DNA of 60,138 bases from Patescibacteria group bacterium (GCA_022709565.1 JAKLIO010000002.1:1-60138); one strand, 5' to 3'; shown: positions 11,611 to 51,598, counted from the first letter of the stretch. Numbers and translations are program-made. Notes: generated by a model not told the origin, from the sequence alone.

Positions 11611-11650
11611 GCCACTTGGCTTAAATTTTGAGTTTAGTTCAAATTTCATA

Positions 11651-11700
11651 ATTCGTATTTTGTATTTAGTATTCATACGAGATACCAAAGACTAGATACT
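11651..11700. repeat. Intergenic copy of the ATAC-periodic repeat family
   Basis: attcgtattttgtatttagtattcatacgagataccaaagactagatact uses the same words that are found in frame in uvrB, uvrC and tsaD. Confidence 0.6.
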
Positions 11701-14837: not shown

Positions 14838-15878
14838 TTAGACTGTTTGAATTTTAGCTTTCGCTGAAATTTCCTTGAAAATTTTATCCGCCACTTTCGG
14901 ATTTTCCTTGAGAAAAGCTTTGGCGGCTTCTCTGCCGGCTCCCAACTTCTCTTCTCCAAATGAAAGTGCATTACCTGATTTTTTGACAACTTCATATTTA
15001 ACACCCGTATCCAGAAGATCGCCAGGAAGAGAAATGCCTTCATTATACATAATATCAAATTCGGCTGTTTTGAACGGAGCCGCTACTTTGTTTTTAACAA
15101 TTTTTACTTTTGTCCTGTTGCCCACTATTTCTTCGCCCTTTTTAATCTGCGCGCTTCTTCTGACTTCTATGCGCACTGAGGAATAAAATTTCAAAGCCTG
15201 CCCTCCGGTTGTCGTTTCCGGATTGCCGAACATCACCCCGATTTTCATGCGGATCTGATTAATGAAAATGACAGTCGCATTAGACCGCGCAATGATAGCC
15301 GTTAGTTTCCGAAGAGCCTGCGACATGAGCCGAGCTTGACGGCCCACATGCTGATCGCCCATCTCGCCTTCTATTTCCGCTCTAGGCACCAAAGCAGCCA
15401 CTGAATCCACGACAATCATATCCACTACTCCGCTACGCACCAGCGTTTCCACAATATCCAAAGCCTGCTCGCCGGTATCCGGTTGCGACACTAAAAGATC
15501 TTTAATATTCACGCCGATCTTTTTGGCATATTCCGGATCAAGCGCATGCTCCGCATCCACAAAAGCCGCAGTGCCGCCCAATTTTTGCGAATTAGCAATG
15601 ATATGCAAAGTCAGGGTTGTCTTGCCTGAAGATTCCGGTCCATAAACCTCAATAATTCTGCCTCTTGGCACGCCGCCATTGCCAATGGCAATGTCCAGAG
15701 AAATAGAACCGGTCGGAATTGATTCTACATCCACGTGCCGCACGTCGCCCAGCTTCATTATCATGCCCTCGCCAAATTTTTCCTGAATATCTTCAACCAG
15801 CTTGTCGACTTCTTTTTTTTCTGCGTTCCTTACTTTTTCAACCAGCTCCTTGGGAGCTTTCTTAGTCTTATTAATCAT
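14838..15878 (-). CDS. recA: Recombinase RecA
   Basis: Walker A ([10 protein letters not shown]), Walker B (IVVDSVAAL) and full-length RecA similarity. Confidence 0.97.
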
Positions 15879-19863: not shown

Positions 19864-20532
19864 TTAGAGGCTTATAAATTTCACCGGCAGGACGCGACGA
19901 AAAATTCCCGCGATAAAAATAACATCGGCTTCCGACAAATAGATCGGGTGATGCGCGTCATTGGTAGAATGCGGGAAAAGTCCAATCACGCCTTTGCCCA
20001 TATTTTTATAACGCTTGATAGTGGCCATACCATTAATAACCGCCACCACAACTTTTCCCTCCAAATCAGCTTGCCCTTCAACTTTTTCAAAAATCGCATA
20101 ATCTCCGTCATTGATTCCGTCTTTATTCATCGAGTCTCCGAGCGCTTTGACCGCAAACATTTTTTCCGGTTGCGTTTTGCCAAACAGACTTTTGGAAAGT
20201 TGGAGAAAGTCATCCGCCGGATTGTCTTCGGCATACGCCAGCGCTTCTCCGCAAGAAGCCAGACCGTAGAGCGGAATGGAAAAAACATTTTGCGCGTCGC
20301 CGTAATTTTCATTTTCTACCAGGTATATTTTTTTATTCTCATCACGCGTGATTAGATCTTTCTTTTCCAGCGCTTCGATCACTTGCATGACTGATTTCAT
20401 GCTGTCGCTGCCACCCTTGGAAACCAAGTATTTATGCAAGCGATAGCTGGTTGGCTTCTCGCCGTTTTGCATTGTGATTTCCCGAATGTATTCGAGAATG
20501 TTTTTTTGTTTAGCAGTTAGTTTTTGTTCCAT
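19864..20532 (-). CDS. lexA: LexA-family repressor (S24 peptidase)
   Basis: N-terminal wHTH (LTAKQKNILEYIRE...) and a C-terminal S24 domain with GDSM and a downstream Lys (VVVAVINGMATIKRY). Confidence 0.85.
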   Translation of the reverse strand: MEQKLTAKQKNILEYIREITMQNGEKPTSYRLHKYLVSKGGSDSMKSVMQVIEALEKKDLITRDENKKIYLVENENYGDAQNVFSIPLYGLASCGEALAYAEDNPADDFLQLSKSLFGKTQPEKMFAVKALGDSMNKDGINDGDYAIFEKVEGQADLEGKVVVAVINGMATIKRYKNMGKGVIGLFPHSTNDAHHPIYLSEADVIFIAGIFRRVLPVKFISL

Positions 20533-20550
20533 ATTTTTTTATTTTAAATT

Positions 20551-20579
20551 ATTATAGTGTTATTTTATCACTACTTCAA
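20551..20579 (-). promoter_or_regulatory. lexA promoter with an embedded palindrome (candidate operator)
   Basis: Minus strand reads TTGAAG, a 17-nt spacer, then TATAAT. The spacer contains TAGTG-N9-CACTA (20555-20573). Confidence 0.45.
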
Positions 20580-20673
20580 TATCACTGCAATACCACCCTG
20601 TGGATAACTTTATGTTTCAGCTCTCCAAAAAACCGACAAATCTGAAAGACTCAAAAAATGGCTTTCTAGAGAC

Positions 20674-20709
20674 AAAAAAATGCCGGATTCCAAGTTGAAG
20701 GAAACCGGC
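20674..20709 (-). terminator. Terminator of the 20729-21070 gene
   Basis: Minus-strand CCGGTTTCC...GGAATCCGG followed by CATTTTTTTG. Confidence 0.55.
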
Positions 20710-20728
20710 TATAACTTTTTTCCATAAA

Positions 20729-21070
20729 CTAGTGTTTAAATGAAAAAAATGCAAGGCTCTCATCTACTATACTGCTACTTTCTTGCACGAAAATCTCAAG
20801 CATTCTTTGAGCATGTCTGCCCATAAGATACTTGTATGCGTTGAAATTACTTCTTTCGTCTAATTTTAATCCCCTTTGTAGAATTTTTCCGCCCTGTTTG
20901 TAGATCTCCCAAACCTGCAAATCATCGACTGCAATGATTCGGCTTTCTACATCTTCCGACTCTTGTTTGTAAGAAAATTTACTAATTGTGACATTGGGAA
21001 CTCCCATTTCTTCTAGAAAATCAGTCTCTTTTTTGCTGACCCTGTCCAGCGTCTTAAAAAATGCAAACAT
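20729..21070 (-). CDS. Hypothetical protein (113 aa)
   Basis: Strong SD (ggaaAGGAGGctccgcATG). The palindrome GAGTCAA-t-TTGACTC lies just upstream of the SD. No recognisable motif. Confidence 0.6.
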   Translation of the reverse strand: MFAFFKTLDRVSKKETDFLEEMGVPNVTISKFSYKQESEDVESRIIAVDDLQVWEIYKQGGKILQRGLKLDERSNFNAYKYLMGRHAQRMLEIFVQESSSIVDESLAFFSFKH

Positions 21071-21239
21071 GCGGAGCCTCCTTTCCGAGTCAAATTGACT
21101 CTGATTATGAATATTTGAATGTTAAAAAAACTATTGCTATCTACTTAATTATTACCGCTGAAATCGCCGGCTATTTCAAAATAAAAAAAGCGATTATTTT
21201 TAAAAACCGCTCTTTTATGCAAGATCTGGAAATGAATTA

Positions 21240-21280
21240 AAAAAACTAAAGGCCAGTCTGCTCTTTGAGCGACCGGCCTT
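21240..21280 (-). terminator. Terminator after the small ORF at 21292-21429
   Basis: Minus-strand AAGGCCGGTC...GACTGGCCTT followed by a T-rich tail. Confidence 0.55.
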
Positions 21281-21291
21281 GCGTGCGATTT

Positions 21292-21429
21292 TCACTTAAT
21301 TTTGTTTTTTTTCGAACTACGCTGATGTCTCCTGTGAGCCCTTTCTTTGAATTCAAGTTTTTTTAAACTTTCAGAAAAAGCCGACGACCTTTTAAGGTCA
21401 AAAAAATCCATTATCCTTTCCACAAACAT
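21292..21429 (-). CDS. Small basic hypothetical protein (45 aa), below the ORF-track size cutoff
   Basis: Strong SD (GGAAGGGGAGGGGctgaagtATG). My translation is MFVERIMDFFDLKRSSAFSESLKKLEFKERAHRRHQRSSKKNKIK. It has its own terminator. Confidence 0.4.
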   Translation of the reverse strand: MFVERIMDFFDLKRSSAFSESLKKLEFKERAHRRHQRSSKKNKIK

Positions 21430-21559
21430 ACTTCAGCCCCTCCCCTTCCTCTTTGTTTAATTTAATGAAAAATTGATATTAAGATCTATATTACACCTAA
21501 ACCAAAAATATGCAAGCACGGGTGATTATTCACTTTTCCGAAAGGCTGTTTTGTAGGTC

Positions 21560-21597
21560 TTGACATTTTTGGTTCTTTCAATTATCATTGATAATTG
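21560..21597 (+). promoter_or_regulatory. Promoter of the L,D-transpeptidase gene, overlapped by a perfect 19-bp palindrome
   Basis: TTGACA (21560-21565), a 17-nt spacer, then TATCAT (21583-21588). The palindrome CAATTATCA-T-TGATAATTG spans 21579-21597. Confidence 0.5.
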
Positions 21598-21640
21598 CAT
21601 GAATAGCTGTTTAAAAACTACAAGGAGAGGGAGGATTATT

Positions 21641-22270
21641 ATGAAGATTAGAAGTCTTGTTTTTTTTGTTTGCATTATTTGTTCTTTTTTAGTGGGAACA
21701 GCTTTTGCCCAAGATGTTCCGGAAGGTTTTGTCACGTACAAAGTCAAGCGGGGAGATTCTTTGGGTAAAATCGCTCCAGATGATCATCATGAATTAATAA
21801 TGAAGATCAACAAATTTGACAGGCGACATCTACCGATCGGGAAAGAAATATTAATTCCAGTAGATTTCGAAAAGGCTAGTGAATTCACGCCGGTTCCGAC
21901 ATATTGCGAAGAAACAAGCGATAGTGAACGATCCGTGCATGTTTTTCTGGGCACCCAATACTTTGGTGCCTATGAAAAAGGCCAACTGGTTTTCTGGGGA
22001 CCGATTTCATCTGGCAAAGGAAGAAAAGGAACTCGCCCCGGAAACTTTAAAGCAGCAAAGAAAGAACCCTTGCATCTGTCTAAACTCTATGGGAGAGCTC
22101 CGATGCCGTTTTCGGTAAATTTGTCCAGAACTCATTATTTCCTCCACCAGGGGGATTTGCCGGGCTATCCTGCTTCTCATGGTTGCACCCGCCTGCTGCG
22201 CGAGGATGCTAAAAAAATATATGACTGGATCAAAATAAATGATCCGGTCATAATCAGTCGCAATAACTAG
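21641..22270 (+). CDS. LysM-domain L,D-transpeptidase (YkuD family), secreted
   Basis: SD aAGGAGAGGGAGGattattATG. Signal peptide MKIRSLVFFVCIICSFLVGTAFA, LysM segment (YKVKRGDSLGKIAP) and catalytic SHGCTRL. The track start at 21560 is probably a 5' over-extension. Confidence 0.8.
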   Translation: MKIRSLVFFVCIICSFLVGTAFAQDVPEGFVTYKVKRGDSLGKIAPDDHHELIMKINKFDRRHLPIGKEILIPVDFEKASEFTPVPTYCEETSDSERSVHVFLGTQYFGAYEKGQLVFWGPISSGKGRKGTRPGNFKAAKKEPLHLSKLYGRAPMPFSVNLSRTHYFLHQGDLPGYPASHGCTRLLREDAKKIYDWIKINDPVIISRNN

Positions 22271-22348: not shown

Positions 22349-22379
22349 CTCGCCACGGATTTGGGGAAATAAAAAAACC
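22349..22379 (-). repeat. Island junction module 1, copy F
   Basis: Minus strand reads GGTTTTTTTATTTCCCCAAATCCGTGGCGAGA, directly after a terminator stem (CCACCC...GGGTGG). Confidence 0.7.
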
Positions 22380-22435
22380 ACCCCGATACTATTCTATCTG
22401 CTGGGTGGTTATTAACTAATAGGGCGAACAATTTT

Positions 22436-22696
22436 CTACCAACGCATCGCGAGGACTTGTTCGATGACAATCTTATATTGTATTCTGTCTTCATAGTTTA
22501 ATATTTTTTTCTCTCTTGAATAAATAAACTCTTCTTCTTGTCTTAGCATCCAACTGATCAAAGGTGCTTTGTTCGACAAGAAATATGTTTCATTTAAGAA
22601 AGATAAAAAAACATCAATCTCTTCATTTAAAAAATTTTCTTCCCGTAACACCTTTATCCAGCCCCCCATATCGTCGTCGGGAATTTTAATTACCAT
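22436..22696 (-). CDS. Hypothetical protein (86 aa)
   Basis: SD taGGGGGAGaattataATG at the internal Met of the track ORF. No recognisable motif. Confidence 0.5.
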   Translation of the reverse strand: MVIKIPDDDMGGWIKVLREENFLNEEIDVFLSFLNETYFLSNKAPLISWMLRQEEEFIYSREKKILNYEDRIQYKIVIEQVLAMRW

Positions 22697-22777
22697 TATA
22701 ATTCTCCCCCTAGAATCGAATTTTGTTGTTATTATTAAGGTAAACCAAAAAAATAACAATAAACTATTATTGACAAT

Positions 22778-23182
22778 TTAAATCCGAAAAACATCTTGCT
22801 TGTTTACTCTGAACCCCAGAAAATTGTATTTTTCTGCTACCGATTCTAAGGCATCAAGCGCTGCAGCACACTCTGGAAATTTTTCCCTGGCTTCCTCGCA
22901 AAGATACAATTTGCACGATAGAGATTTTGTTGCGCATCCAGTTTTCAGTAGATGACAACAACCGCCGCAACAATCCCACTGCATTCCCGTAAAACACTTT
23001 CCCTTTTTGAAAACGCAAGGTTTATATTTAGAAAGCACCCTGCGAGCTGCGCTGTAGAGCACGTCGTACAATTTAGATTTTATATTAAATTCCGTCTTCG
23101 ACATTTTCTTCTCTCTCATTTGTGCGCCTGTTTTAAATTCAGATAATGCCTTTGAAAGATTGACATTTTTACCATGTGGCAT
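22778..23182 (-). CDS. Cys-rich hypothetical protein (134 aa), possibly metal/Fe-S binding
   Basis: SD aaaGGGGGAAAGaatcATG. Cys cluster KPCVFKKGKCFTGMQWDCCGGCCHLLKTGCATKSLSCKLYLCEE, which loosely resembles the CxxCxxCC zinc/iron-chelating family. Confidence 0.5.
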   Translation of the reverse strand: MPHGKNVNLSKALSEFKTGAQMREKKMSKTEFNIKSKLYDVLYSAARRVLSKYKPCVFKKGKCFTGMQWDCCGGCCHLLKTGCATKSLSCKLYLCEEAREKFPECAAALDALESVAEKYNFLGFRVNKQDVFRI

Positions 23183-23263
23183 GATTCTTTCCCCCTTTAT
23201 ATATGAATTTGTAAAATAACCGATTTTAAATATTACTTCATTGTTGATCAAAAGTCAAGTCAG

Positions 23264-23299
23264 CCAAATCCCGCCGCGGATTTGGGGAATAAAAAAACC
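23264..23299 (-). repeat. Island junction module 1, copy E
   Basis: Minus strand reads GGTTTTTTTATTCCCCAAATCCGCGGCGGGATTTGG, with a CCAAATCC/GGATTTGG hairpin. Confidence 0.75.
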
Positions 23300-23325
23300 G
23301 CTGAGACCATGTTGAGTCTCAGCGG
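23291..23325 (-). terminator. Helicase gene terminator
   Basis: Minus-strand CCGCTGAGAC-tcaacatg-GTCTCAGCGG followed by TTTTTTT. Confidence 0.8.
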
Positions 23326-23333
23326 CGCTAATT

Positions 23334-25211
23334 CTACTTGTCTGTTTTTCTATTTTTAAAAAATTCATTGAGTCTTTCAAAGAAACTATATTCGTCGCAA
23401 TCATAAAATGAGTTTGGAAAAGGTGGCAACATCGGATCAACCTTCCTAGCAACACAGTAATAGCTCTTCCAGCTGTATGCATTGGCTTTTAAGGCTGCCT
23501 CTAAACATTCTTGTTCCGTAGCGTAATATTTTTTTCTCCTTTCTGCTGCTTTGTTCTTTCTAATTTCTTTTGTTTTTTCTTCCGCTTTACAGATACATTC
23601 TGGACAAATAACTTTTTCATCTAGTATTGTAAAAAGATATTCTTCATAATCCCTCTTACATTTAGAACAATTCCATAAGAATTTATCCAGAAAATTTTTT
23701 GTTACTGTAACTTCTTTTAATGGTATTGGGTTGCTAGCAGAGTATTTTGCAGCCAGTGTAGTATTTGCATTTACCAAATATTCTGAAGGTTTTGGTACCT
23801 TGCCAGCGCAAGCAGGACATCCTGTTTTTTGAATCAGGCGACTTTGACCTTGTGCCCACCATTCATGGGAACATTTTGAACATTTCCAAAGATACTTCCT
23901 ATGTGATCCTGCAGCTGCCTGCTCTGGTGGTAAAATATTTTCATTAGAATATTCCGCCAGAAGATTAGGAAAATCAGCCACAAAACGACACTCAATTCTT
24001 TTTATAATTTCTAGTATATCAATTTGATCGTCGCTAAAACAAAAGTCGAACGCTGAACCACTAACATGAAGCGATTCTTTGTTTAGAATAAAATTATTTC
24101 CGGCAAATTCTTTCACTCGATGAGCCATTTCTTTAACCATAGCTAATCTTTCACAATTAGCCACGAAATCAAGAACAATAACTTTTTCTTTGCCGAAAAT
24201 TTTTCGGAGACCCCTACCTAGTTGCTGAAAGAAAATCGTTTTGGAATCAGTACACCGCAAGAATACAATCAATTCTGCATCTGGAACATCAATGCCTTCA
24301 TTAAATTTATTAACTGCCAGAATATATTGCAGTGATCCTTCGCGAAAAGCATCCAGCCTTTTCCGATTTTCTTTTCTTCCACCTTTCACTTTGGAGTGAT
24401 AAGTTAGCGAACCCGGAAGATGTGACTGGAAGTTTTCTGCATGTTCAATTTTTTCACAGAATATAATCGCTTTTTTGCTTGAACTGGCATACTCCTGAAT
24501 CGTTCGAGCAATTTCTTCGTCACGTTTCTCGATGAAGATGCTTTCATTAATCTGCTTTACTGAAACACACTGGCCTTCTTCCAGTATACCCCTAATAATT
24601 TTCTTAAGCTTCCAGTGGTTCAAATTATCATTGAGAATACGATATTCAACCTGTGTCAGCCAACCCTTAGCAATCGCCTCTTCCAATGGATAATTTACAA
24701 CTTCTTTTCCGAATATTTCTCTAATGTCTTTCATATCCTCCCGATTAGGGGTGGCCGTGATACCGAGAAGTTTTTTTGGTTTGAAATACTGAATCACTTC
24801 TTTGAAAGTTGGAGCTTGACCGTGGTGCGATTCATCGACAATGATAAAATCAAATTCATCTTCGAAAAAAGCATTCTTCCAATTAGCATAGGTTTGGAAT
24901 GAAGCAAAGACTATATCTGATTTATCGGCGTCAAAATCTTTATCATTTCCAAAAAAGGAACACAATTTAGCCTTATCGCCCATGACCTTTCTAAACTCTT
25001 CCGTGGCTTGTTCCAGAATGCCATTATCATGGCAGAGAAACAATCCTTTACGTTTTTTCTTAAGTTCACTCTTCGCCCAAAATGCAGCTACGATGGTTTT
25101 GCCAAGGCCAGTGGCCATAACAACTAATGCTTTATTCTTTGTTTCGAAAGCTTTCATTATTAAATTGAGAGCTTCCCCTTGATAACCAAATAAATCAGAT
25201 GCTGTGATCAT
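23334..25211 (-). CDS. SF2 (ResIII/DEAH-type) helicase with C-terminal tandem zinc ribbons
   Basis: Motif I VMATGLGKT, motif II IIVDESHH, motif III ITATPNR, motif VI QQLGRGLR. The C-terminus has WKCSKCSHEWW...GCPACAGK and WNCSKCKRDY...CPECICK. SD ttGGAGGatataaaATG. Confidence 0.8.
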   Translation of the reverse strand: MITASDLFGYQGEALNLIMKAFETKNKALVVMATGLGKTIVAAFWAKSELKKKRKGLFLCHDNGILEQATEEFRKVMGDKAKLCSFFGNDKDFDADKSDIVFASFQTYANWKNAFFEDEFDFIIVDESHHGQAPTFKEVIQYFKPKKLLGITATPNREDMKDIREIFGKEVVNYPLEEAIAKGWLTQVEYRILNDNLNHWKLKKIIRGILEEGQCVSVKQINESIFIEKRDEEIARTIQEYASSSKKAIIFCEKIEHAENFQSHLPGSLTYHSKVKGGRKENRKRLDAFREGSLQYILAVNKFNEGIDVPDAELIVFLRCTDSKTIFFQQLGRGLRKIFGKEKVIVLDFVANCERLAMVKEMAHRVKEFAGNNFILNKESLHVSGSAFDFCFSDDQIDILEIIKRIECRFVADFPNLLAEYSNENILPPEQAAAGSHRKYLWKCSKCSHEWWAQGQSRLIQKTGCPACAGKVPKPSEYLVNANTTLAAKYSASNPIPLKEVTVTKNFLDKFLWNCSKCKRDYEEYLFTILDEKVICPECICKAEEKTKEIRKNKAAERRKKYYATEQECLEAALKANAYSWKSYYCVARKVDPMLPPFPNSFYDCDEYSFFERLNEFFKNRKTDK

Positions 25212-25269
25212 TTTATATCCTCCAATTCATATTTTATTGTTAAAATTGCTATCCAAAATCTGACAGATG

Positions 25270-25298
25270 ATAATAGCACAAAGATAGCATAGCGTCAA
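25270..25298 (-). promoter_or_regulatory. Helicase gene promoter
   Basis: Minus strand reads TTGACG, a 17-nt spacer, then TATTAT preceded by TGc (extended -10 type). Confidence 0.55.
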
Positions 25299-25329
25299 TG
25301 CCTAATATCGGCTCGAAATAAAGAACTTT

Positions 25330-25370
25330 CACCCAATCTCCAGCCGTGGATTTATGGGAATAAAAAAACC
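25330..25370 (-). repeat. Island junction module 1, copy D
   Basis: Minus strand reads GGTTTTTTTATTCCCATAAATCCACGGCTGGAGATTGGGTG. Confidence 0.7.
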
Positions 25371-25399
25371 ATCCTTTTGGAAGCTGCTTTTGTAGCGCG

Positions 25400-26569
25400 C
25401 TATTTTCTTGGTTCTATAAAAATTTCTTTTTCAACTACTGCCGGCAAAAACTTTTCCATCGATTTCCTGATTTCTTTCATTCTCTTTGCATAATCTTCTC
25501 CCGGATTCATCAGATTGATTCCTTTATCTTTCATTTCACATAGTAATGAGACAAGATATTGGACTTCATCTGTTTCAAAATTATCCCTCAAATAGGAAGC
25601 TTCCTTGATAAAAGATACTATTTCCTCTTTGGACATCTGCTCAAATTTTTCTCCAAATATTTTTCTTTCCTCATTAAAGGCTAGCATTTTTTCTCTGTCT
25701 TCATCTTTCATTTTCTTTAGCTTTATTTTCCCTCTCATTTCATTCGGCAAGTGTTTTTTTAGAAATTCTTCAACTGGGATAATTCCCAAGGCTACCTGAA
25801 AATGGAGCTTTCCCTCTTCCCTAAATCTTTTCATCTGTTCTTTGCCAATCTGTCCATCCTTGTCCATTAGTTGCCACCAAGTCGAAAAATGATCAAGCGA
25901 ATCAGTTTTTTCCACAATTTTAAATCCAATCCTATCGGCAATTTTTTGGTGATCCAAAATCCATGATCGCCCAATAACAAATTGGGTTTCCGGATATTTT
26001 TCTACAATATCTTGAGCCAACTTTTCAAAAGATTCTCTCAGTTTCATATGACCGACTCCGCCTTCTTGACGATAAGCTTCACCAAAATGAATTTCAATAT
26101 ATGGTTCCATAATTCCTATCCCAAATTTTTCAAAATCCTGATTACCCTTATCCAGATTGTATTTTATCATCCCCGCCCTGTTGGATTTTTCAGATGAATG
26201 ATCCATATTGATCGGACCAAGTGCATCAACTTTCTTCGCTGTCAAATTTGAAATTTCTTCTTCCCAATTGTCCGCTTTTTGTTCATGAATATTTTTTATT
26301 TCTTCAGAAAGCAAAGCCCAGAATTCTTCAAGATCTTTTTTCTTATCAGGATATCGTGCTTCATATTCTCTTTTAACATTATCCTTCCCGATGGGAGTGT
26401 ATTTTTCAAGAATATCTAAAAAATCGCACTCGCCATTTTTTTCTTTCTCTTCCAAAAATTTGCTGTCCGCAAAAGAAAGCTGAATGATTTGCAGTCTTTT
26501 TCTTAATTCTTTCGCATGCTGATCAATGCTTTCAGCCTCAATTGGCCTCGCGTGTTCCGGATTAAACAT
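25400..26569 (-). CDS. Hypothetical protein (389 aa from the ATG at 26569)
   Basis: Long ORF with no motif I can name. The track start at 26617 lies inside the promoter module, so MFNPEHARP is the more likely start. No SD. Confidence 0.6.
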   Translation of the reverse strand: MFNPEHARPIEAESIDQHAKELRKRLQIIQLSFADSKFLEEKEKNGECDFLDILEKYTPIGKDNVKREYEARYPDKKKDLEEFWALLSEEIKNIHEQKADNWEEEISNLTAKKVDALGPINMDHSSEKSNRAGMIKYNLDKGNQDFEKFGIGIMEPYIEIHFGEAYRQEGGVGHMKLRESFEKLAQDIVEKYPETQFVIGRSWILDHQKIADRIGFKIVEKTDSLDHFSTWWQLMDKDGQIGKEQMKRFREEGKLHFQVALGIIPVEEFLKKHLPNEMRGKIKLKKMKDEDREKMLAFNEERKIFGEKFEQMSKEEIVSFIKEASYLRDNFETDEVQYLVSLLCEMKDKGINLMNPGEDYAKRMKEIRKSMEKFLPAVVEKEIFIEPRK

Positions 26570-26596
26570 AAAAAATAATATATTAGATATATCTTT

Positions 26597-26644
26597 AGTA
26601 TAACACAATTCCCGCACACAAAAACCAGCCCCGGAAAGAGCTGG
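26597..26644 (-). repeat. Island junction module 2, copy C (terminator hairpin plus promoter)
   Basis: Minus strand reads CCAGCTCTTTCCGGGGCTGG-TTTTTGTGTGCGGGAATTGTGTTATACT. Confidence 0.65.
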
Positions 26645-26655
26645 TAAAACAATTT

Positions 26656-27324
26656 TTATTGCAAACTTTCAATTTCTCTTTTTATATTATTTCGTGCCTT
26701 AACTTCAGATTTTTTAAACATTTCTTCAGTAAAATATATTCTATCCTTTTTGAGAAAATTTTCCATAACCTCTTTTCTTCTTTCCTTATAAACATCATCT
26801 GGAACCCAAGCGTATTCTCGACGTATGGCTTTAGTATATGAATCATATTTATCATTGTCTTCAGACAAAATGGCCAAATCACCATCAAGAAAAATTGAGC
26901 AATCATTGTCACCGTCAATATTTTCGTGCTTCCATGTTGCCCTTATTAACTTTTCAACTTTTACAATAATATCTTTTTGAATTCCTAATTCTTCAAGTTT
27001 TTTTCTAGCAAAAATTGCGCTTTGCTCTTCATTATCTTTAGCCTGCGTATCATATATAACATCGTGAAACCAAGTTGCTAAACATACCGCATCAAAATTC
27101 TCGATTTCATCTTTTTTTCCTTCAATAAATTTTAAAAGTTTTTCAACATGTTTTCTGTTGTGATAAAATCTTTTTTCAGAATCATACATCCTGACGATTT
27201 TATTGAATATTTCTTCGCCTTTCTTTGGATCTACGCCAAAATTTTCAATCGCAGATTTCCATTCTTTCTCTGCTTCAAATTCTTTCTCTATTCTCATTAA
27301 TGTTGATTCTTTTATTTCTGCCAT
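26656..27324 (-). CDS. HD-domain metal-dependent phosphohydrolase
   Basis: YHNRKHVEKL ... ATWFHDVIYD ... FLDGDLAIL ... IRREYAWVP form an HD-superfamily His/Asp pattern. Confidence 0.75.
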   Translation of the reverse strand: MAEIKESTLMRIEKEFEAEKEWKSAIENFGVDPKKGEEIFNKIVRMYDSEKRFYHNRKHVEKLLKFIEGKKDEIENFDAVCLATWFHDVIYDTQAKDNEEQSAIFARKKLEELGIQKDIIVKVEKLIRATWKHENIDGDNDCSIFLDGDLAILSEDNDKYDSYTKAIRREYAWVPDDVYKERRKEVMENFLKKDRIYFTEEMFKKSEVKARNNIKREIESLQ

Positions 27325-27349
27325 AAAGATGTTTTTTTAATTTATTCTA

Positions 27350-27408
27350 CCCCCATTATACCAACCCCCGCACACAAAAACCAGCCGCAGATTTGGGAAA
27401 TAAAAATA
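27350..27408 (-). repeat. Island junction modules 1 and 2, copy B
   Basis: Minus strand reads TTTTTATTTCCCAAATCTGCGGCTGG-TTTTTGTGTGCGGGGGTTGGTATAATGGGGG. Confidence 0.7.
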
Positions 27409-27429
27409 TAAGACAACAAGGCTTGCATT

Positions 27430-27939
27430 TTACTTGCCAAGAAGAATGTCGCTGTAGGAATTTTTTATTTTTGTATATTTCTCAAGTTCTAACATCTTAT
27501 AAACTTCCGCATATTCAGTTTGAAACTTTTCAAGCTTTCCCTTTACAACAGTTTCCAATTCTAAAAAAGATCCGGCTTTTTTAACTTTATCTAAATGAAT
27601 CCGCGTATTTTTCAAAATCCATATTTCCCTTTCTTTTTCCACGATCACTTTTTCTCCGAAAGCTTGGCTCAAAAAAAGTTTTGTTTCTTTTAATTTCTTT
27701 TTATCAATCTTCAAAACATTATACTCTGACACCTTGTTTTCTTCGTGGTTTGGTCGAATATAAAATATAATCTCGGATTTATTCTCATTTATCTCGCGTA
27801 ATTTTAGCCGTCCGTTCTTGCAATTATAATATGTGTCTACTTGATGAAATATTCCCCCGCGCTTAGCACCGTTGGATTTCAAAATGGAAACAATTTTCTT
27901 AAAATTTCCAATTTTCACCTTAACTTCAATGTTTTTCAT
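27430..27939 (-). CDS. CYTH-domain protein (class IV adenylate cyclase / CyaB-like triphosphate tunnel enzyme)
   Basis: 169 aa with an N-terminal IEVKVKI (ExExK-like) motif, QVDTYYN, RLKLREIN, IHLDKVKKAGSFLELE, and a size typical of CyaB/CYTH proteins. Confidence 0.7.
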   Translation of the reverse strand: MKNIEVKVKIGNFKKIVSILKSNGAKRGGIFHQVDTYYNCKNGRLKLREINENKSEIIFYIRPNHEENKVSEYNVLKIDKKKLKETKLFLSQAFGEKVIVEKEREIWILKNTRIHLDKVKKAGSFLELETVVKGKLEKFQTEYAEVYKMLELEKYTKIKNSYSDILLGK

Positions 27940-27963
27940 ATATTTTTATTTATACCTTGTCTA

Positions 27964-28036
27964 CATTATACCAACCCCTCCCCACAAAAACCAGCTTCTC
28001 GCCCAATCTCCCGCTGCGGATTTGGGGAAAAACAAC
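27964..28036 (-). repeat. Island junction modules 1 and 2, copy A
   Basis: Minus strand reads GGTTGTTTTTCCCCAAATCCGCAGCGGGAGATTGGGCGAGAAGCTGG-TTTTTGTGGGGAGGGGTTGGTATAATG. Confidence 0.75.
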
Positions 28037-28075
28037 CATACTTTCCCCAATAATTTAAAAAAGGCTTATATAAAA

Positions 28076-28152
28076 GCAAAAAACACCCTGCCTGGGTGCT
28101 TTTTGCCTTCCATACCCTGTACCAAATCCTCTTTTAGCGGATTGGTACAGGG
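28076..28152 (-). terminator. rpoC terminator region (two hairpins)
   Basis: Minus-strand CCCTGTACCAATCC...GGATTTGGTACAGGG, then GCACCC-aggca-GGGTG followed by TTTTTTGC. Confidence 0.7.
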
Positions 28153-28216
28153 CAAGCCGCTCAAGTATTAGTATATTTGTATTTCCTAAGAAGCTAATAA
28201 GCTAAAGCCTGATAAG

Positions 28217-31200
28217 CTACTTCTTGAACTCTCGGTATCCTGTTCCAGCTGGGATCAGGCGGCCGATGATCACGTTTTCTTTAAGGCCTCTGAGACGATC
28301 ATCTTTTCCGGTCACGGCGGCGTTAATCAAAACGCGGGCTGTTTCCTGGAAGGATGCGGCTGACAGGAACGATTCAGTTGAAAGAGCAACCTTGGTAATT
28401 CCCATAATCAGCTGCTCGCCAGTGGCTGGATCTTTCTTAGCTTTATGCGCGTCATCATTTTCTTCACGGAATTGATCCTTTTCAACAATGTCGCCCGGCA
28501 GAAGATCTGTGTCGCCGGCTTCCAAAACTTTGATGCGGCTCAGCATTTGGCGAATGATAACTTCAACATGTTTGTCATTGATGCCTTCGCCCTGCGCTGC
28601 GTAAATTTCCTGAATCTCGTTGATGATATATCTTTGGATTGCTTCTTGTCCCATGGTGGCATAAAGCTTCTTAAGATCAATATGTCCTTCGTTCAGCTGG
28701 GTGCCTTTGCCAATAAGCTGTCCTTTAGCAACAACAATGGTTGATTCGCTTGGAACTTGATATTCCACCATGTCTTTACCAGTGGTTTCAACTTTGATTG
28801 TAGTTGTTTTTTTATTCTCATTGACGATTTCCATAACCTTTCCGTCAACTTCAGAAATGACTGCTTCGCCTTTCGGTGGGCGAGCTTCAAAAATTTCTTC
28901 CACACGCGGCAGACCTTGGGTGATGTCTGTTCCCGCGACACCTCCAGTATGGAAGGTACGCATCGTCAGCTGTGTTCCCGGTTCACCGATAGCTTGCGCA
29001 GCCACAATTCCGACTGCTTGACCAATATTGACCAAGTTGCTGCGACCAAGGTCAGCGCCATAACAAGCGCGACAGATTCCTCTTTGGCTTTTGCAAGTGA
29101 TGACATTTCTGATTTTAACTTGTTTTACGCCCGCTTTGTCGACAGCTTGTCCGTCTTCCTTGGAAGCTAATGTGCCTTTTTTAACAATGACTTTTTTGGT
29201 CTTCGGATCAACAACATCTTCAACCAGGACGCGGCCTTCAACTCTGGCTGCAAAACTTAGTCCGATTCTTTCTGAATCTTCTTTGTAGATAAATCCCCCT
29301 TCAGTATCGCCGCAATCTTCTTCGCGAACAATAATGTCTTGAGCCACGTCAACGAGGCGGCGAGTCAGATATCCGGCAGTCGCGGTTCGAAGAGCGGTGT
29401 CAGCCATACCTTTTCTGGCTCCGTGAGTTGAAATGAAATATTCCAAAACATTGAAACCCTCTTTGAATGAGCTTTTTACTGGCAGTTCAATCGTTTCTCC
29501 AGTTGGTCCGGCCACGAGTCCTTTCATACCTTCCATCTGCACCACCACTGATTCTGAACCTCTGGCTTTGGAGTGCACCATAGTATAAACGCTGCCTTCA
29601 TGATCCAAGGAACTTTTCACGGCATCCGCAATAATGTTTTTTGTGCGATTCCAAATATCAATCACGCGGTTCTTTCTTTCTTCTTCAGTCAGGAGACCCA
29701 TCAGATATTGCTGGTTGATAGTCGCAACTTCTTCTCCGGCTTTTTTCATAGCTGGTGCTTTTTCCGGCGGAACTTGCAGATCATCCATACCCCAACTGAT
29801 TCCGCTGCAGCCAGCCATTTTGAATCCGAGCTGCTTGATGCGGTCGATGAACTGCGCAGTTTCTTCCTGTCCTTTTGTCATCAGAATGCGCGCTACCAGA
29901 TGTTTGATTTCTTTCTGAGTAAATTCTTCATTTATAAATCTGAATTCAGGCAGCAAGATATTATTAAGCATGATGCGCCCTACCGATGTTTCCAAAATTT
30001 CTTTTCCGATCTGAACTCTTATTTTTGCGTTCACAGCCACGTAATCCAATTGATGGGCCAAAATAGCTTCTTCAGGAGTCGCGAAAATTTTCCCTTCACC
30101 TTTAACTCCGTCTTTGATGTGAGTGATATAATAAATTCCCAACACAATATCTTTTGATGGAACAACGATCGGTTCTCCGGAAGCCGGTTTCAAAAGATTT
30201 TTGGAAGAAAGCATGATGTTGGCGCTTTCTTCGCGAGCTTGATCAGTCAGCGGCACATGCACAGCCATCTGGTCTCCATCGAAGTCAGCGTTGAAGGCAG
30301 TACAAACCATAGGATGAACCTGAATAGCTTTTCCTTCGATCAGCACCGGTTGGAAAGCCTGAATAGACAAGCGGTGCAGGGTCGGAGCGCGGTTCAAAAG
30401 AACATAGTGATGTTCGATGATTTCATCCAAAATTTCATAAGCTTCTTCGGCTTCCGCGTCCACCATTCGGCCGGCAGTTCTCACATTGTGCGCGAATTCT
30501 TTTTCAATAATTTTATTAATGATAAACGGTTTGAAAAGTTCGAGCGCCATTTTCTTCGGCAGTCCCGCTTGATGCAATTTCAGCTGCGGACCAACCACGA
30601 TCACGGAACGTCCGGAATAGTCAACGCGTTTTCCCAAAAGGTTTTGTCTGAATCTCCCCTGTTTGCCTTTGAGCGCGTCTGCGAGTGAGCGCAGCGGTCG
30701 TCTTTGTCCAGTGGAAGCGGCCACGGATGACTGACCTTTGCGGGCGCTGTTGTCAAACAAAGCGTCCACGGCTTCTTGCAGCATTCTTTTTTCATTTCTT
30801 GTAATAACTTCCGGCGCGCCTAAATCAATCAGTTTTTTCAAACGATTATTTCTGTTGATAATTCTGCGATACAAGTCATTGAGATCAGAAGTCGCAAAAC
30901 GTCCTCCGTCCAAAGCTACCATAGGACGCAGATCCGGCGGGATAACTGGAATCGCAGTCGGTAGCATCCATTCAAGTTGCAATCCGGCTTTTTTGAAACC
31001 CTGAAAAAGTTTCATGCGTTTGAAAAGTTTTTTCTTGTCGGATGTTTCCTCGTCTTCCAATTCTTTCTTAATCTTCTTGATCATCTTATCGATATTCATT
31101 TCGGAAAGCACATCGCGCACAGCTTCAGCACCAATACCGGCTGAAAATACTTGTCCGAAACGGGAAGACAGATTGAAATATTCCAATTCTGAAAGAACCT

Positions 31201-31801
31201 GCATCGGTTTCAGACTTTTGATTTCATCTCTGACTGCTTTGTATTGATCGTGCAATTCTCCGAGCATTGTGTCAGCGCCACGTTCATTTTCAGTACTGCC
31301 GGATTTGATTTCTTTCTGCTTGGCTTTGTATTCCTGTTCCAATTGATTTACAACACGGTCTCTCACTTCTTCATTGACGCTTTTAATAATGTAAGCGGAA
31401 AAATAGATAACTTTTTCCAAGTCCTGCACGCCAATGCCCAAAGCTAAACCGATTTTTGACGGCACACCGCGCAGAAACCAGATATGTGAAACCGGCACAG
31501 CCAATTTGATGTGTCCCATTCTTTCGCGACGCACGATTGAACGAGTCACTTCGACTCCGCATTTGTCGCAAACGATGCCTTTATATCTGATACGTTTATA
31601 TTTTCCGCAGTAACATTCCCAGTCTTTGGAAGGCCCAAAGATTTTCTCGCAGAAGAGTCCGTCTTTTTCGTACCGCTGGGTGCGATAGTTGATTGTTTCC
31701 GGTTTGGTGATTTCGCCGTGAGACCAATTCATTATGCTTTCCGGGCTGGCTAGCCTGAGTCGGACGCTATTGAAATCGCTCACTTTAGTAATATTTTCCA
31801 T
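28217..31801 (-). CDS. rpoC: DNA-directed RNA polymerase subunit beta'
   Basis: 1194 aa with the NADFDGDQM catalytic motif, a zinc-binding CxCGK..C..C segment near the N-terminus and full-length similarity. Confidence 0.98.
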   Translation of the reverse strand: MENITKVSDFNSVRLRLASPESIMNWSHGEITKPETINYRTQRYEKDGLFCEKIFGPSKDWECYCGKYKRIRYKGIVCDKCGVEVTRSIVRRERMGHIKLAVPVSHIWFLRGVPSKIGLALGIGVQDLEKVIYFSAYIIKSVNEEVRDRVVNQLEQEYKAKQKEIKSGSTENERGADTMLGELHDQYKAVRDEIKSLKPMQVLSELEYFNLSSRFGQVFSAGIGAEAVRDVLSEMNIDKMIKKIKKELEDEETSDKKKLFKRMKLFQGFKKAGLQLEWMLPTAIPVIPPDLRPMVALDGGRFATSDLNDLYRRIINRNNRLKKLIDLGAPEVITRNEKRMLQEAVDALFDNSARKGQSSVAASTGQRRPLRSLADALKGKQGRFRQNLLGKRVDYSGRSVIVVGPQLKLHQAGLPKKMALELFKPFIINKIIEKEFAHNVRTAGRMVDAEAEEAYEILDEIIEHHYVLLNRAPTLHRLSIQAFQPVLIEGKAIQVHPMVCTAFNADFDGDQMAVHVPLTDQAREESANIMLSSKNLLKPASGEPIVVPSKDIVLGIYYITHIKDGVKGEGKIFATPEEAILAHQLDYVAVNAKIRVQIGKEILETSVGRIMLNNILLPEFRFINEEFTQKEIKHLVARILMTKGQEETAQFIDRIKQLGFKMAGCSGISWGMDDLQVPPEKAPAMKKAGEEVATINQQYLMGLLTEEERKNRVIDIWNRTKNIIADAVKSSLDHEGSVYTMVHSKARGSESVVVQMEGMKGLVAGPTGETIELPVKSSFKEGFNVLEYFISTHGARKGMADTALRTATAGYLTRRLVDVAQDIIVREEDCGDTEGGFIYKEDSERIGLSFAARVEGRVLVEDVVDPKTKKVIVKKGTLASKEDGQAVDKAGVKQVKIRNVITCKSQRGICRACYGADLGRSNLVNIGQAVGIVAAQAIGEPGTQLTMRTFHTGGVAGTDITQGLPRVEEIFEARPPKGEAVISEVDGKVMEIVNENKKTTTIKVETTGKDMVEYQVPSESTIVVAKGQLIGKGTQLNEGHIDLKKLYATMGQEAIQRYIINEIQEIYAAQGEGINDKHVEVIIRQMLSRIKVLEAGDTDLLPGDIVEKDQFREENDDAHKAKKDPATGEQLIMGITKVALSTESFLSAASFQETARVLINAAVTGKDDRLRGLKENVIIGRLIPAGTGYREFKK

Positions 31802-43776: not shown

Positions 43777-44042
43777 AAAAATGCTTTATTCAAGCCATAT
43801 CAAATTCTTCGACAAATGTAGCCCTGCGCTATATTAGCCAATATAAGCCATTTATTTTTCCGTCCCAAAATTTGATTTTAGTGATTTTTGTCAAAAAATT
43901 GGCCGAAAAATTTCAGAAAATCGCAAAATAAAAAAAGTCCTTCGACTTTTTCGGGTAGAAATCTCCGGACAGATGCAAAACTGGGTATGAAATACTATTT
44001 TGCTTTATTTAAGCCTTTTCAAATTCTGAGGCAAATGTAGCC
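43777..44042 (+). repeat. Non-coding repeat of about 266 bp, copy 1
   Basis: Aligns along its whole length with 50322-50587, including a 61-nt identical run (43892-43952). An internal unit of about 45 nt ending in caaatgtagcc lies at both ends, with a third partial unit at 44043-44090. Confidence 0.85.
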
Positions 44043-44248
44043 TTGCCTAGAAGGCCTTATTCAAGCCACGCTGCTCAAATGAATTTCTGGCTGGTTTTAG
44101 CAAAAAATGCTTTTCTCAATATATAAGCAGAAAAAGCTTTGACTAATGCCTGAAAGTGTGCTAATCTTGTAATGTTAAACTTATTTTAGAAAAATAGTCG
44201 AGCTTCGTAAAATATTCAATTTTACAAATCTAACAATTACAAAAAACT

Positions 44249-45022: not shown

Positions 45023-45134
45023 GGGGGAATCTCACGCGCTCGCTTTCGCTCGCTTTTCAAACCCCTCGGTTTGAATAATTCCGCCACGGGAAAACCTAGG
45101 TTTTCCCGACCCCTTTCCTCGTTCGATTTCTCCC
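45023..45134 (-). repeat. tRNA-linked conserved element, copy 1, downstream of tRNA-Gly(UCC). Its distal end repeats GATTCCCCCT from the tRNA T arm.
   Basis: Shares the core GGAAAGGGGTCGGGAAAACCTAGGTTTTCCCG..GG.GGAA.TATT.AAACCG...GGTTT.AAAAGCGA with 51357-51477 and 59718-59800. A 33-nt run is identical to copy 2. Confidence 0.8.
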
Positions 45135-45181
45135 ACCCAAAAAATAAAAACTCTCCTTCTGGGAGAGTTTTTATTTTTTTG

Positions 45182-45253
45182 AGCGGGTAGGGGGAATCGA
45201 ACCCCCATCTCAACCTTGGAAGGGTCGCATAAGAGCCATTATACTATACCCGC
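45182..45253 (-). tRNA. tRNA-Gly (anticodon UCC)
   Basis: Hand-folded cloverleaf: acceptor GCGGGTA/TACCCGC, anticodon stem CGACC/GGTTG with loop CTTCCAA, T arm GGGGG-TTCGATT-CCCCC. Confidence 0.85.
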
Positions 45254-50321: not shown

Positions 50322-50587
50322 AAAAATGCTTAATATAAGCCCTTTCAAATTCTTCAACAAATGTAGCCCTATGCCATATTGCCCAATTTAAGCCATTTAT
50401 TTTTCCGTCCAAAAAGTTGATTTTGGAGATTTTTGCCAAAAAATTGGCCGAAAAATTTCAGAAAATCGCAAAATAAAAAAAGTCCTTCGACTTTTTCAGG
50501 TGAAAATCTTCGGACGAGTGCAAAACTGGCCACACAATACCGTTTTGCTTTATTTAAGCCTTTTCAAATTCTTCGACAAATGTAGCC
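50322..50587 (+). repeat. Non-coding repeat of about 266 bp, copy 2
   Basis: Collinear with 43777-44042 and in the same orientation. Confidence 0.85.
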
Positions 50588-50642
50588 TCCTCTTTTTTGC
50601 CTAATTTAAAGCTTTTCCATATCTCGGGAAAAAGCCACTCAA

Positions 50643-51356: not shown

Positions 51357-51477
51357 TGGTACCGCTACGGGGAAATCTCACGCACTCACTGTGTTCGCTT
51401 TTGAAACCTCTCGGTTTCAATACTTCCACCCCGGGAAAACCTAGGTTTTCCCGACCCCTTTCCTTGTTCGATTTTCC
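51357..51477 (-). repeat. tRNA-linked conserved element, copy 2, downstream of tRNA-Glu. Its distal 17 nt (51357-51373) duplicate the tRNA-Glu 3' end including CCA.
   Basis: tggtaccgctacgggga at 51357-51373 is identical to 51524-51540. The core is as in copies 1 and 3. Confidence 0.85.
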
Positions 51478-51523
51478 TTAGCATAAAATTAAAAAATCCC
51501 CATGCTGAGAATTTTTAATTTTT

Positions 51524-51598
51524 TGGTACCGCTACGGGGAATCGAACCCCGGTTTACAGGATGAAAACCTGCTGTCCTAACCACTAGACGATAGCGGC
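51524..51598 (-). tRNA. tRNA-Glu (anticodon UUC), CCA encoded
   Basis: Hand-folded cloverleaf: acceptor GCCGCTA/TAGCGGT, anticodon stem GCAGG/CCTGT with loop TTTTCAT, T arm CGGGG-TTCGATT-CCCCG, 3' ACCA. Confidence 0.88.

Follow-up and report, generated by a model that had tools for sequence, protein, structure and literature searches.

Gene content of the rpoC-lexA interval

The DNA analyzed here, referred to as the window, is a 60,138-nucleotide stretch of the genome of a Patescibacteria group bacterium (GCA_022709565.1, contig JAKLIO010000002.1, positions 1 to 60138). Within the window, we characterized an island of 5.7 kb that extends from rpoC to ykuD and lexA and in which genes are separated by short repeated junction sequences, designated module 1 (M1) and module 2 (M2). 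On the minus strand, rpoC is followed by six open reading frames (ORFs) and then by a convergent gene encoding an L,D-transpeptidase, an ORF specifying 113 amino acids (aa), and lexA. The G+C content of the island is 0.32 to 0.37 versus 0.395 for the whole window. The closest named homologues of RpoC belong to Candidatus Moranbacteria, in the Patescibacteria or candidate phyla radiation (CPR). The exact protein encoded by the first gene of the island was detected on 17 contigs originating from several metagenomes, and the gene order was the same as far as the contigs reached (10 places listed, with 6 similar ones collapsed). Thus, the array is not an assembly artefact.

The upstream flank of the island is provided by rpoC itself (1194-aa ORF, 28217 to 31801, minus strand), which is the conserved border of the hot spot. 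The region located 3' to rpoC (28078 to 28153, minus strand) comprises a hairpin (28115 to 28153), a GTATGGAAG motif, and an intrinsic terminator (28078 to 28098), and belongs to a backbone shared with relatives. The downstream flank (19864 to 22270) is of mixed orientation and contains the L,D-transpeptidase gene ykuD (21560 to 22270, plus strand), the 113-aa ORF (20729 to 21070, minus strand), and lexA (19864 to 20532, minus strand), the latter being the conserved right flank in relatives. The Pfam domains YkuD, Peptidase_S24, and LexA_DNA_bind were identified in the proteins of this flank. The recA gene (14838 to 15878) is located 7 kb from the island.

All units of the island are encoded by the minus strand. 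Unit 1 (27430 to 27939) encodes a CYTH-domain protein of 169 aa (Pfam CYTH, E 1e-16), which matched cyaB weakly, under the cutoff. Unit 2 (26656 to 27324) encodes an HD-type phosphohydrolase of 222 aa identified by its similarity to phrog_19425 (phosphohydrolase, E 2.9e-31) and by homologues named 'HD superfamily phosphohydrolase'; no Pfam match was obtained for this protein. Unit 3 (25400 to 26569) encodes a 389-aa protein with a weak GNAT-like core. The latter protein matched no family and is rare, only 8 clusters being found in a set of 5.8 billion proteins; its AlphaFold2 model is confident, with a predicted local distance difference test score (pLDDT) of 85, and the best fold matches were all GNAT acetyltransferases, with E values of 0.02 or weaker. 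Unit 4 (23334 to 25211) encodes a superfamily 2 (SF2) helicase of 625 aa (Pfam ResIII, Helicase_C, and two DUF4379 zinc fingers), the core of which resembles the helicase domains of type IV and type I restriction systems. Unit 5 (22436 to 23182) comprises the genes for a Cys-rich protein of 134 aa (22778 to 23182) and for a protein of 86 aa (22436 to 22696). The sequence-only reading from which this analysis started had described six minus-strand genes separated by modules. The six genes are all real ORFs. There is no module at the junction between the Cys-rich and 86-aa genes, and the island is therefore composed of five units rather than six.

The presence of a restriction-like SF2 helicase, a CYTH protein, and an HD phosphohydrolase, together with the Schlafen/AlbA_2-like, AcrVA2-like, and DUF3800 proteins encoded at the same place in relatives, suggests that the contents of the slot may be of a conflict or defence type. 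A defence-system assignment was dropped since the SF2 protein was matched by PADLOC only in its generic helicase core.

Sequence and position of the junction modules

The junctions were numbered J5 to J0 from rpoC to ykuD, all on the minus strand. The left boundary of the array is J5, which consists of an M1 copy in its full form, with the right arm GGGAGATTGGGCGAGAA (27996 to 28037), and an M2 copy (27964 to 27995), a promoter-like sequence with the extended -10 element TGGTATAAT that precedes the CYTH gene. At J4, only the left half of M1 is present (27386 to 27410), fused straight to the promoter-like M2 copy that precedes the HD gene (27354 to 27385). J3 (26597 to 26645) contains a terminator, ACCAGC..GGCTGGTTTTT, which overlaps the M2 copy preceding the gene for the 389-aa protein (26597 to 26629, with the variant -10 element TTATACT). 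J2 harbors a full-form M1 with its right arm (25326 to 25370). J1 (23264 to 23326) is formed by a strong terminator (23291 to 23326) followed by an M1 copy (23264 to 23299) containing a perfect 8-6-8 palindrome, CCAAATCC GCGGCG GGATTTGG. The right boundary, J0 (22349 to 22408), faces the convergent ykuD gene and is likewise formed by a terminator (22371 to 22408) followed by M1 (22349 to 22379). The eight module copies of the sequence-only reading, five of M1 and three of M2, were all found where it had placed them.

For the analysis of M1, 11 copies from four genomes were aligned. The conserved part spans about 25 nucleotides (nt) and consists of a terminator T-run running into ATT(T)CCCCAAA(A)TCCGCGG(C) in the 11 copies, in other words a T-run followed by ATTCCCCAAATCCGCGG(C), the core of which can also be written TTTTTATTCCCCAAATCCGCGG^C. 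The sequence beyond the core varies among the copies: M2 is found to the right of it at J4 and in copy L107a (from relative L107, see below), the arm GGGAGATTGGGYGARAG at J5, at J2, and in copy L107c, a perfect palindrome at J1, and unrelated sequence in the remaining copies. All 11 copies are direct and oriented in the same way as their genes. The spacing of M1 is fixed relative to the upstream T-run and variable relative to the next promoter. In four of the five units, the terminal T-run leads at a fixed spacing into M1, with a clear terminator stem in two of these four cases, and the HD unit ends, at J3, in a terminator that retains only a remnant of M1.

M1 had been described as a hairpin-forming motif that follows each terminator stem, and neither property was general. 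Clear terminator stems are limited to J1, J0, and J3. Hairpin formation holds for three to four copies at most and is not a conserved property: the folding z-score was -2.15 for J5 and ranged from -0.7 to +0.8 for the other five copies, and the proposed stem showed 64.8% pairing, versus 63.7% in shuffled sequences, with no covariation. Comparison of the region between 21 and 29 kb with the RNA families of Rfam, at E values up to 5, returned nothing beyond noise, and the same comparison for the whole window returned only tRNAs. Two other candidate functions for M1 were rejected. A tRNA-derived att remnant was discarded because there is no similarity to the five tRNAs of the window, and a LexA operator because the conserved sequence upstream of lexA carries other repeats and because M1 is absent upstream of recA, uvrA, uvrB, and uvrC.

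Promoters and terminators are described here from the sequence only. M2 begins with GCTGGTTTTT, which at J3 corresponds to the 3' half of the terminator stem and its T-run, and continues with a G-rich spacer and an extended -10 element. Three units start with the shared M2. In this module the extended -10 (TGGTATAAT) is perfect, a feature shared by other likely promoters of the window. Each unit appears to be equipped with its own promoter-like sequence, which is either M2 with TGGTATAAT or a sequence of the TTGACx-17-TAxxAT type; a promoter scan identified for the SF2 helicase gene the promoter-like sequence TTGACG-17-TATTAT at positions 25270 to 25298. The leaders of the CYTH, HD, and 389-aa genes (27940 to 27963, 27325 to 27353, and 26570 to 26596, respectively) are short, AT-rich, and devoid of a clear Shine-Dalgarno sequence, whereas strong sites of the GGAGG type, together with ordinary -35/-10 promoters, precede the helicase, Cys-rich, and 86-aa genes. 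Two classes of units are thus present in the island. A third junction module, the promoter-like M3, was identified in relatives L105 (6470 to 6540) and L107 (1505 to 1560). It consists of TTGCTT, 17 nt, and TGCTTAAAT, with the pattern CTTGCTTTTT..TTTAGTGCTTAAAT..AAACTAAGTTTTTT, and it follows M1 and precedes unrelated ORFs in these two genomes.

Distribution of the modules in the window and in other genomes

A profile search of the whole window detected M1 and M2 only in the island. The 19-nt core of M1, with up to 3 mismatches allowed, gave 3 matches versus 0.01 expected from shuffled sequences, and the 31-nt sequence of M2 gave 2 matches versus 0.00 expected. An additional weak match to M1 (2891 to 2912, E 0.0065) was dismissed as a chance match in the coding sequence of uvrC. 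The TGNTATAAT element is generic in this genome (7 sites); the remainder of M2 is not. In a metagenome collection, the strict M1 pattern was found only in the organism carrying contig L091 and, within this 214-kb contig, only at the hot spot. The modules are therefore not a genome-wide terminator or promoter consensus, the outcome that would have refuted the proposal of a cassette array: no copy is present in the remaining 54 kb of the window, and the strict M1 pattern matched the 214-kb contig of the relative nowhere except in the same slot.

M1-like copies located directly after the T-run of hot-spot genes were found in three other genomes. L091 has two good copies of M1 and a degenerate M1-M2 composite, L107 has three copies of M1, and L105 has one copy, located right after the rpoC terminator. 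The RpoC of L105 is only 71% identical to that of the window. Neither M1, M2, nor any other repeated junction module was found in the closer relatives L093, L095, L096, L101, and L103. The presence of M1 at 71% RpoC identity and its absence from closer relatives indicate a patchy distribution with respect to phylogeny. The possibility that repeated junction modules are a general property of the slot was rejected since L095, L101, and L103 have none. In L091 (16740 to 16781 and 17832 to 17871), each M1 copy is followed by a perfect palindrome of 38 nt, GAAAACTATTCTGGTATTCTCGAGAATACCAGAATAGTT. A compensatory double change, from G..C to C..G, distinguishes the two copies of the palindrome and preserves its symmetry, and M1 and the palindrome together form direct repeats of about 80 nt around a gene encoding a 283-aa protein.

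An origin of the modules in phages or plasmids was also considered and rejected. The strict M1 pattern gave 0 matches in IMG/VR, and looser M1 and M2 patterns gave only chance matches in coding sequence. Comparison of the island DNA with phage and plasmid collections gave no match.

Variability of the slot among relatives

The C-terminus of RpoC matched a species-level genome collection with at best 62% identity, which is of no use for synteny, and gene order was therefore compared by retrieving RpoC homologues and their contigs. In seven relatives with RpoC 88 to 92% identical to that of the window, the interval between rpoC and lexA was neither syntenic nor invariant, as expected from the proposal of a variable array: the contents differed, and one interval was empty. 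No gene is present in L093, in which rpoC and lexA are 432 bp apart. The interval of L096 encodes a 146-aa protein, YkuD, and a 150-aa protein. That of L095 encodes a DUF3800 protein, a 127-aa protein, and an AcrVA2-like protein, followed by the same set as in L096. Proteins of 170, 598 (weak similarity to Schlafen/AlbA_2), 283, 86, and 55 aa are encoded in L091, and proteins of 138, 158, and 443 aa (FecR) in L103. In L101, rpoC is followed by genes for proteins of 157 and 143 aa and for a biotin carboxylase, and the contig ends before any lexA. The contig carrying P0002 has genes for IMP cyclohydrolase and a radical SAM protein and many small ORFs, and no lexA was recognised in its gene list.

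The difference between L095 and L096 is a replacement of 233 bp by 2.46 kb, or the reverse, that starts at the rpoC stop codon, between flanks that are 96.6% and 94% identical, and no module is present. This clean swap between conserved flanks fits a replacement mediated by the flanks. The modules are thus not required for variation of the slot. In L118, the RpoC of which is 99% identical to that of the window (DNA identity, 96%), the sequence ceases to resemble the window 110 nt past the rpoC stop codon (L118 positions 7274 to 7400). Genes for type IV secretion system pilin (T4SS-pilin) proteins, nusA, an H+-pyrophosphatase gene, and tig are located beyond the break, which reflects either a chimeric assembly or a rearrangement that took place at the hot spot.

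Two further observations were made at the borders of the slot. The intrinsic terminator of rpoC recurs in L091, L095, L096, and L118, with a variable hairpin sequence. The stretch that follows the rpoC stop codon (window positions 28100 to 28153) ends with GTATGGA(A/G) in L091, L093, L095, L096, and L118 despite differing downstream DNA. The hairpin preceding GTATGGA(A/G) is the same in the window and in L118 and has a different sequence in L091 and L096. This stretch may be a conserved element of the 3' untranslated region. At the other border, an ORF6N-domain gene is located just upstream of lexA in L005 (7700 to 8236), L006 (8207 to 8743), and L107 (3408 to 3944) and is not present at the corresponding place in the window (about 20555). 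This is a second small presence/absence difference within the species, outside the M1/M2 array.

Breakpoints between units

Breakpoints were located by comparing one close pair of strains and two more distant pairs. The close pair is formed by the window strain and contigs L107 to L110, which represent a close variant of it, with 94.4% identity at the 3' end of the CYTH gene and 94.7% identity around lexA. Between these borders L107 is a mosaic: the 389-aa cassette is 74.9% identical, and the remaining genes of the island are unrelated. In L107, the CYTH gene is directly followed by the homologue of the 389-aa gene, and the junction combines the left part of window J4 with the right part of window J3, the two being joined in GGCTGGTTTTTGTGTGCGGG. 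This indicates that the HD unit of the window is a presence/absence unit located between two repeat copies. It is an exact 756-bp difference (26611 to 27366, minus strand) delimited by perfect 20-bp direct repeats at 27367 to 27386, within M2 of J4, and 26611 to 26630, spaced by 756 nt, and comprises the remainder of the promoter, the HD gene, the terminator, and the right copy of the repeat. Past the 389-aa gene, the similarity with L107 includes the terminator and M1 up to ...CGGC(T/G)GG, where it ends within J2. Three of the four block boundaries between the window and L107 are located inside modules, which represent about 4% of the interval according to a hand estimate.

Shared junction sequences next to different genes were found in further comparisons. 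L105 and L107 share a terminator, M1, and M3, located between rpoC and a 131-aa ORF in L105 and between a 387-aa gene and a 112-aa ORF in L107; the 131-aa and 112-aa ORFs are unrelated. In both the window (J0) and L091, an 86-aa ORF is followed by a related terminator, the two ORFs being unrelated. Homologues of the 389-aa protein (60% and 51% identical) are encoded in the same slot with other neighbours. A homologue of the HD protein (65%) is most likely encoded by the contig carrying P0002, and another (59%), in L111, is found in another genomic context, with no modules. At a junction, the left half remains with the upstream gene, and whatever follows the core on its right is part of the next unit.

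Gain or loss of units at module boundaries, which the sequence-only reading had anticipated, is thus documented by the HD unit between GGCTGGTTTTTGTGTGCGGG copies, by the end of the 389-aa homology within M1, and by the L105/L107 junction between unrelated pairs of ORFs. Together, the variable slot, the local modules, and the breakpoints within modules support the proposal of a recombination-built cassette array that is integron-like in outcome. The rpoC-lexA interval is a hypervariable accessory-gene slot between core genes in Candidatus Moranbacteria, and a set of lineages has its genes arranged there in promoter-ORF-terminator-M1 units that are joined and exchanged at the module cores.

Search for a recombinase

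Pfam scans of nearly all ORFs of at least 100 aa detected no recombinase domain, in agreement with the initial statement that no integrase is encoded in the window. No xer gene was found in the 60 kb. Among relatives, no recombinase appeared in the gene lists around rpoC, which cover 3 to 10 kb of downstream flank depending on the contig, and no transposase or integrase family was represented in the islands of the window or of the relatives.

Other repeats and signals in the window

A near-perfect palindrome of 48 nt, TCCCCGCCTCGCGTCGACGAGCGGTCGTTTCCGCGAGTCGAGGCGGGC, is present in four copies that are 88 to 100% identical (3202 to 3249, 6354 to 6401, 10526 to 10573, and 51862 to 51909). Three copies are located within the open frames of uvrC, uvrA, and uvrB, to which they add 16 residues, and the fourth is intergenic, near tRNA-Glu. 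The in-frame copies recall those palindromic elements of Rickettsia that are located in reading frames. Another short repeat, GTATTTTGTATCTCGTATTTTGTATTTAGTATTTT (2799 to 2847, 10210 to 10258, and 11641 to 11675), is found in the frames of uvrC and uvrB, with ..NTKY(K/E)I(R/Q).. as the coding-strand translation, and, for the third copy, just upstream of uvrB. Long direct repeats separated by about 6.5 kb were also detected, at 43777 to 44064 and 50322 to 50609 (288 nt, 85% identity) and at 45050 to 45205 and 51395 to 51550 (156 nt, 79% identity). The members of the 156-nt pair abut tRNA-Gly(tcc) and tRNA-Glu. These repeats may result from a segmental duplication or mark the ends of an inserted segment.

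At about 52.0 to 52.9 kb, gene orientation changes from minus to plus and the cumulative GC skew reaches its minimum, a pattern expected near a replication origin. No dnaA was seen among the window ORFs that were scanned. A perfect DnaA-box, TTATCCACA, is located upstream of lexA at 20599 to 20607 on the minus strand, and the window contains no other copy. The box is kept at the corresponding position in L091, L093, L096, and L107, likewise upstream of lexA, beside repeated AGTGATA and CACTAT motifs, which may form the LexA operator.

Proposed mechanism of unit exchange

We propose that the cassettes are reshuffled by general recombination between repeated modules, in a slot that resembles the minimal mobile elements of Neisseria, and we assign to this explanation a probability of about 0.5. 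Units would be lost, gained, and re-paired by recombination between directly repeated junction modules, through deletion or excision between two module copies and through Campbell-type insertion, in which a module copy would receive an excised circle or incoming DNA. The general recombination and replication machinery would act in these exchanges, with no dedicated integrase. In addition, DNA uptake followed by homologous recombination in the conserved flanks would allow co-existing strains to swap the whole interval. The L095/L096 replacement and the mosaic structure of L107 are consistent with such flank exchange after uptake, and competence and pilus genes are common in Patescibacteria (PMC12455944). 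We infer this enzymology of the exchange, and favour general recombination, because recA is located 7 kb from the island, the HD unit is bounded by 20-bp repeats, no recombinase was seen, and the slot also varies in lineages devoid of modules.

Several observations weigh against general recombination as the full explanation. Identity tracts between most module copies are 9 to 15 nt in length; only the HD unit is bounded by 20 nt of perfect identity, which is marginal for RecA-dependent exchange. General recombination also leaves unexplained the presence of the same post-terminator motif on about ten unrelated ORFs. The 11 copies of M1, with a constant left half, a sharp switch at the same few nucleotides, and a uniform direction, have features typical of site-specific att sites. 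The conservation of M1 at 71% RpoC identity and its absence from closer relatives suggest selection on the motif or transfer. Finally, the recombinase scan covers the window and the rpoC flanks, and a recombinase encoded elsewhere in the genome could act in trans.

In an alternative explanation, M1 would be the attachment site of a dedicated site-specific recombinase encoded elsewhere, Xer-like or of a new type, which would excise the cassettes as circles with one M1 each and re-insert them at a different M1, with a crossover at ...TCCGCGG^C(T/G)GG. A CPR bacterium would then possess a true system resembling integrons or dif modules. The 11 copies from four genomes combine an invariant left half and short central segment with a variable right half, as expected of hybrid att sites, and every observed breakpoint fits a single crossover point. 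The 8-6-8 palindrome of J1 is laid out like the core site of a recombinase, and the copies are all direct, fixed to the 3' ends of the cassettes as attC sites are, and confined to one locus. Their distribution is patchy with respect to the RpoC phylogeny, M1 being present at 71% and 90% identity and absent in five lineages at 88 to 92%. However, no integrase or recombinase is encoded in the 60-kb window or in the 3 to 10 kb of flank downstream of rpoC in relatives, most copies lack the right arm, the hairpin or palindrome is not conserved, the slot varies also in lineages without M1, and searches of the viral, phage, and plasmid collections yielded no M1 copy. On balance, we regard a dedicated recombinase as a serious but rather doubtful explanation. 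Slightly less probable is its more specific form, in which M1 would be the recombination site of a new CPR cassette system combining promoter-bearing single-gene units, a post-terminator tag of about 25 nt, an enzyme that is encoded elsewhere or is a repurposed Xer-type host enzyme, and a single slot after rpoC, thereby providing an integron analogue of independent origin in ultra-small genomes.

The modules could instead be pure expression signals, comprising a shared terminator, a binding site for a regulator (M1), and a shared promoter (M2), kept by selection or duplication, the differences between strains resulting from ordinary deletions that use the repeats. The perfect extended -10 of M2 (TGGTATAAT), found in other likely promoters of the window, is in agreement with this explanation, as are the location of M1 just upstream of a -35 hexamer in several instances (J1 and the L105/L107b junction) and the short AT-rich leaders without Shine-Dalgarno sequence shared by the three M2-driven genes. 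A 756-bp deletion between 20-bp repeats also requires no special enzyme. We nevertheless consider expression signals to be an unlikely explanation of the whole data set. M1 is positioned relative to the T-run and not to the promoter, J0 faces a convergent gene and has no promoter to serve, and M1 is located upstream of no other gene in the 60 kb. The same junction occurs between unrelated pairs of ORFs in different genomes, and a 389-aa cassette of 75% identity in flanks of 94 to 95% identity cannot be produced by deletion alone. Since extended -10 elements and T-runs are generic in this genome, M1 and M2 might even be a generic terminator and promoter consensus, or chance resemblances, in ordinary vertically inherited DNA. 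This is highly improbable in view of the 0.00 to 0.01 matches expected from shuffling, the lack of copies in the other intergenic regions of the window (about 55), the restriction of the pattern to the same slot in the 214-kb contig, and the differences in the interval found in every relative examined.

Implications and comparison with known systems

CPR genomes are about 1 Mb in size, and the gain and turnover of accessory genes in these bacteria are poorly understood. The slot described here is located next to an essential gene and differs in every close relative. If only general recombination is involved, as we favour, short reused regulatory modules would be able to confer a modularity like that of integrons in the absence of an integrase. 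Should a dedicated enzyme be responsible, the island would represent a new cassette-capture system and offer a case for studying how cassette-associated sites arise, a question that is open for the attC sites of integrons.

The attC sites of integrons are at least 57 nt in length and are imperfect palindromes with paired R and L boxes (R''/L'' and L'/R') and a conserved hairpin. As proposed initially, the modules do not resemble canonical attC sites, since the conserved part of M1 is about 25 nt, its pairing is at the level of shuffled sequences, and its folding z-scores are mostly insignificant. The island shares with chromosomal integrons, Vibrio-type superintegrons, and attC-site clusters devoid of an integron-integrase (CALINs; defined in PMC4889954) the co-orientation of small unrelated units, a similar repeat that stays with the upstream ORF, and differences in gene content at the repeats; as in CALINs, there is no integrase nearby. 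In contrast to integrons, the island has no IntI, attI, or Pc, and M1, with about 25 to 40 nt and no conserved hairpin, is shorter than attC sites of 57 nt or more. The units also appear to be equipped with promoter-like sequences of their own, whereas in integrons 'cassettes rarely contain promoters' (PMC4889954), and the array is located between core genes of a CPR genome. The island is therefore not an integron or a CALIN by membership, because there is no IntI, the sites are short and without a conserved fold, and the units carry promoter-like sequences.

Sites of the pdif type alternate in orientation around their modules. The dif modules of Acinetobacter, delimited at both ends by such XerC/XerD sites, resemble the island by their small, functionally unrelated units comprising one to a few genes, their short conserved sites, and the action of any recombinase in trans, and the palindrome of J1 has a similar arm-6 nt-arm arrangement. 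In pdif sites, which are 28 bp in length (11-6-11), both arms are present (PMC6449649), whereas M1 mostly lacks the right arm, two arms being found only at J1. In addition, all M1 copies are direct, they show no resemblance to dif, and dif modules are plasmid-borne. The island is thus not a dif-module system.

Dispersed repeats, such as the repetitive extragenic palindromic (REP) sequences and bacterial interspersed mosaic elements (BIMEs), the Correia elements and neisserial intergenic mosaic elements (NIMEs) of Neisseria, and miniature inverted-repeat transposable elements (MITEs), are short repeats found after terminators, some of which have promoter or terminator activity and act as recombination substrates. 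M1 is similarly located just past terminators. However, dispersed repeats are present genome-wide in tens to hundreds of copies, whereas M1 and M2 are found at a single locus in the 60-kb window and in the 214-kb contig. They are not a dispersed family of the REP or MITE type.

Parallels are also provided by the minimal mobile elements of Neisseria (Saunders and Snyder, 2002), in the definition quoted in PMC3787668, and by integration hot spots flanked by core genes. Like these systems, the island has a variable content between the same conserved genes among the closest relatives and lacks mobility genes. Reused internal junction modules are no part of the definition of minimal mobile elements, whereas in the island described here single units change at such modules. 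The rpoC-lexA island thus corresponds to the descriptive definition of a minimal mobile element, with reused internal junction modules as an additional feature.

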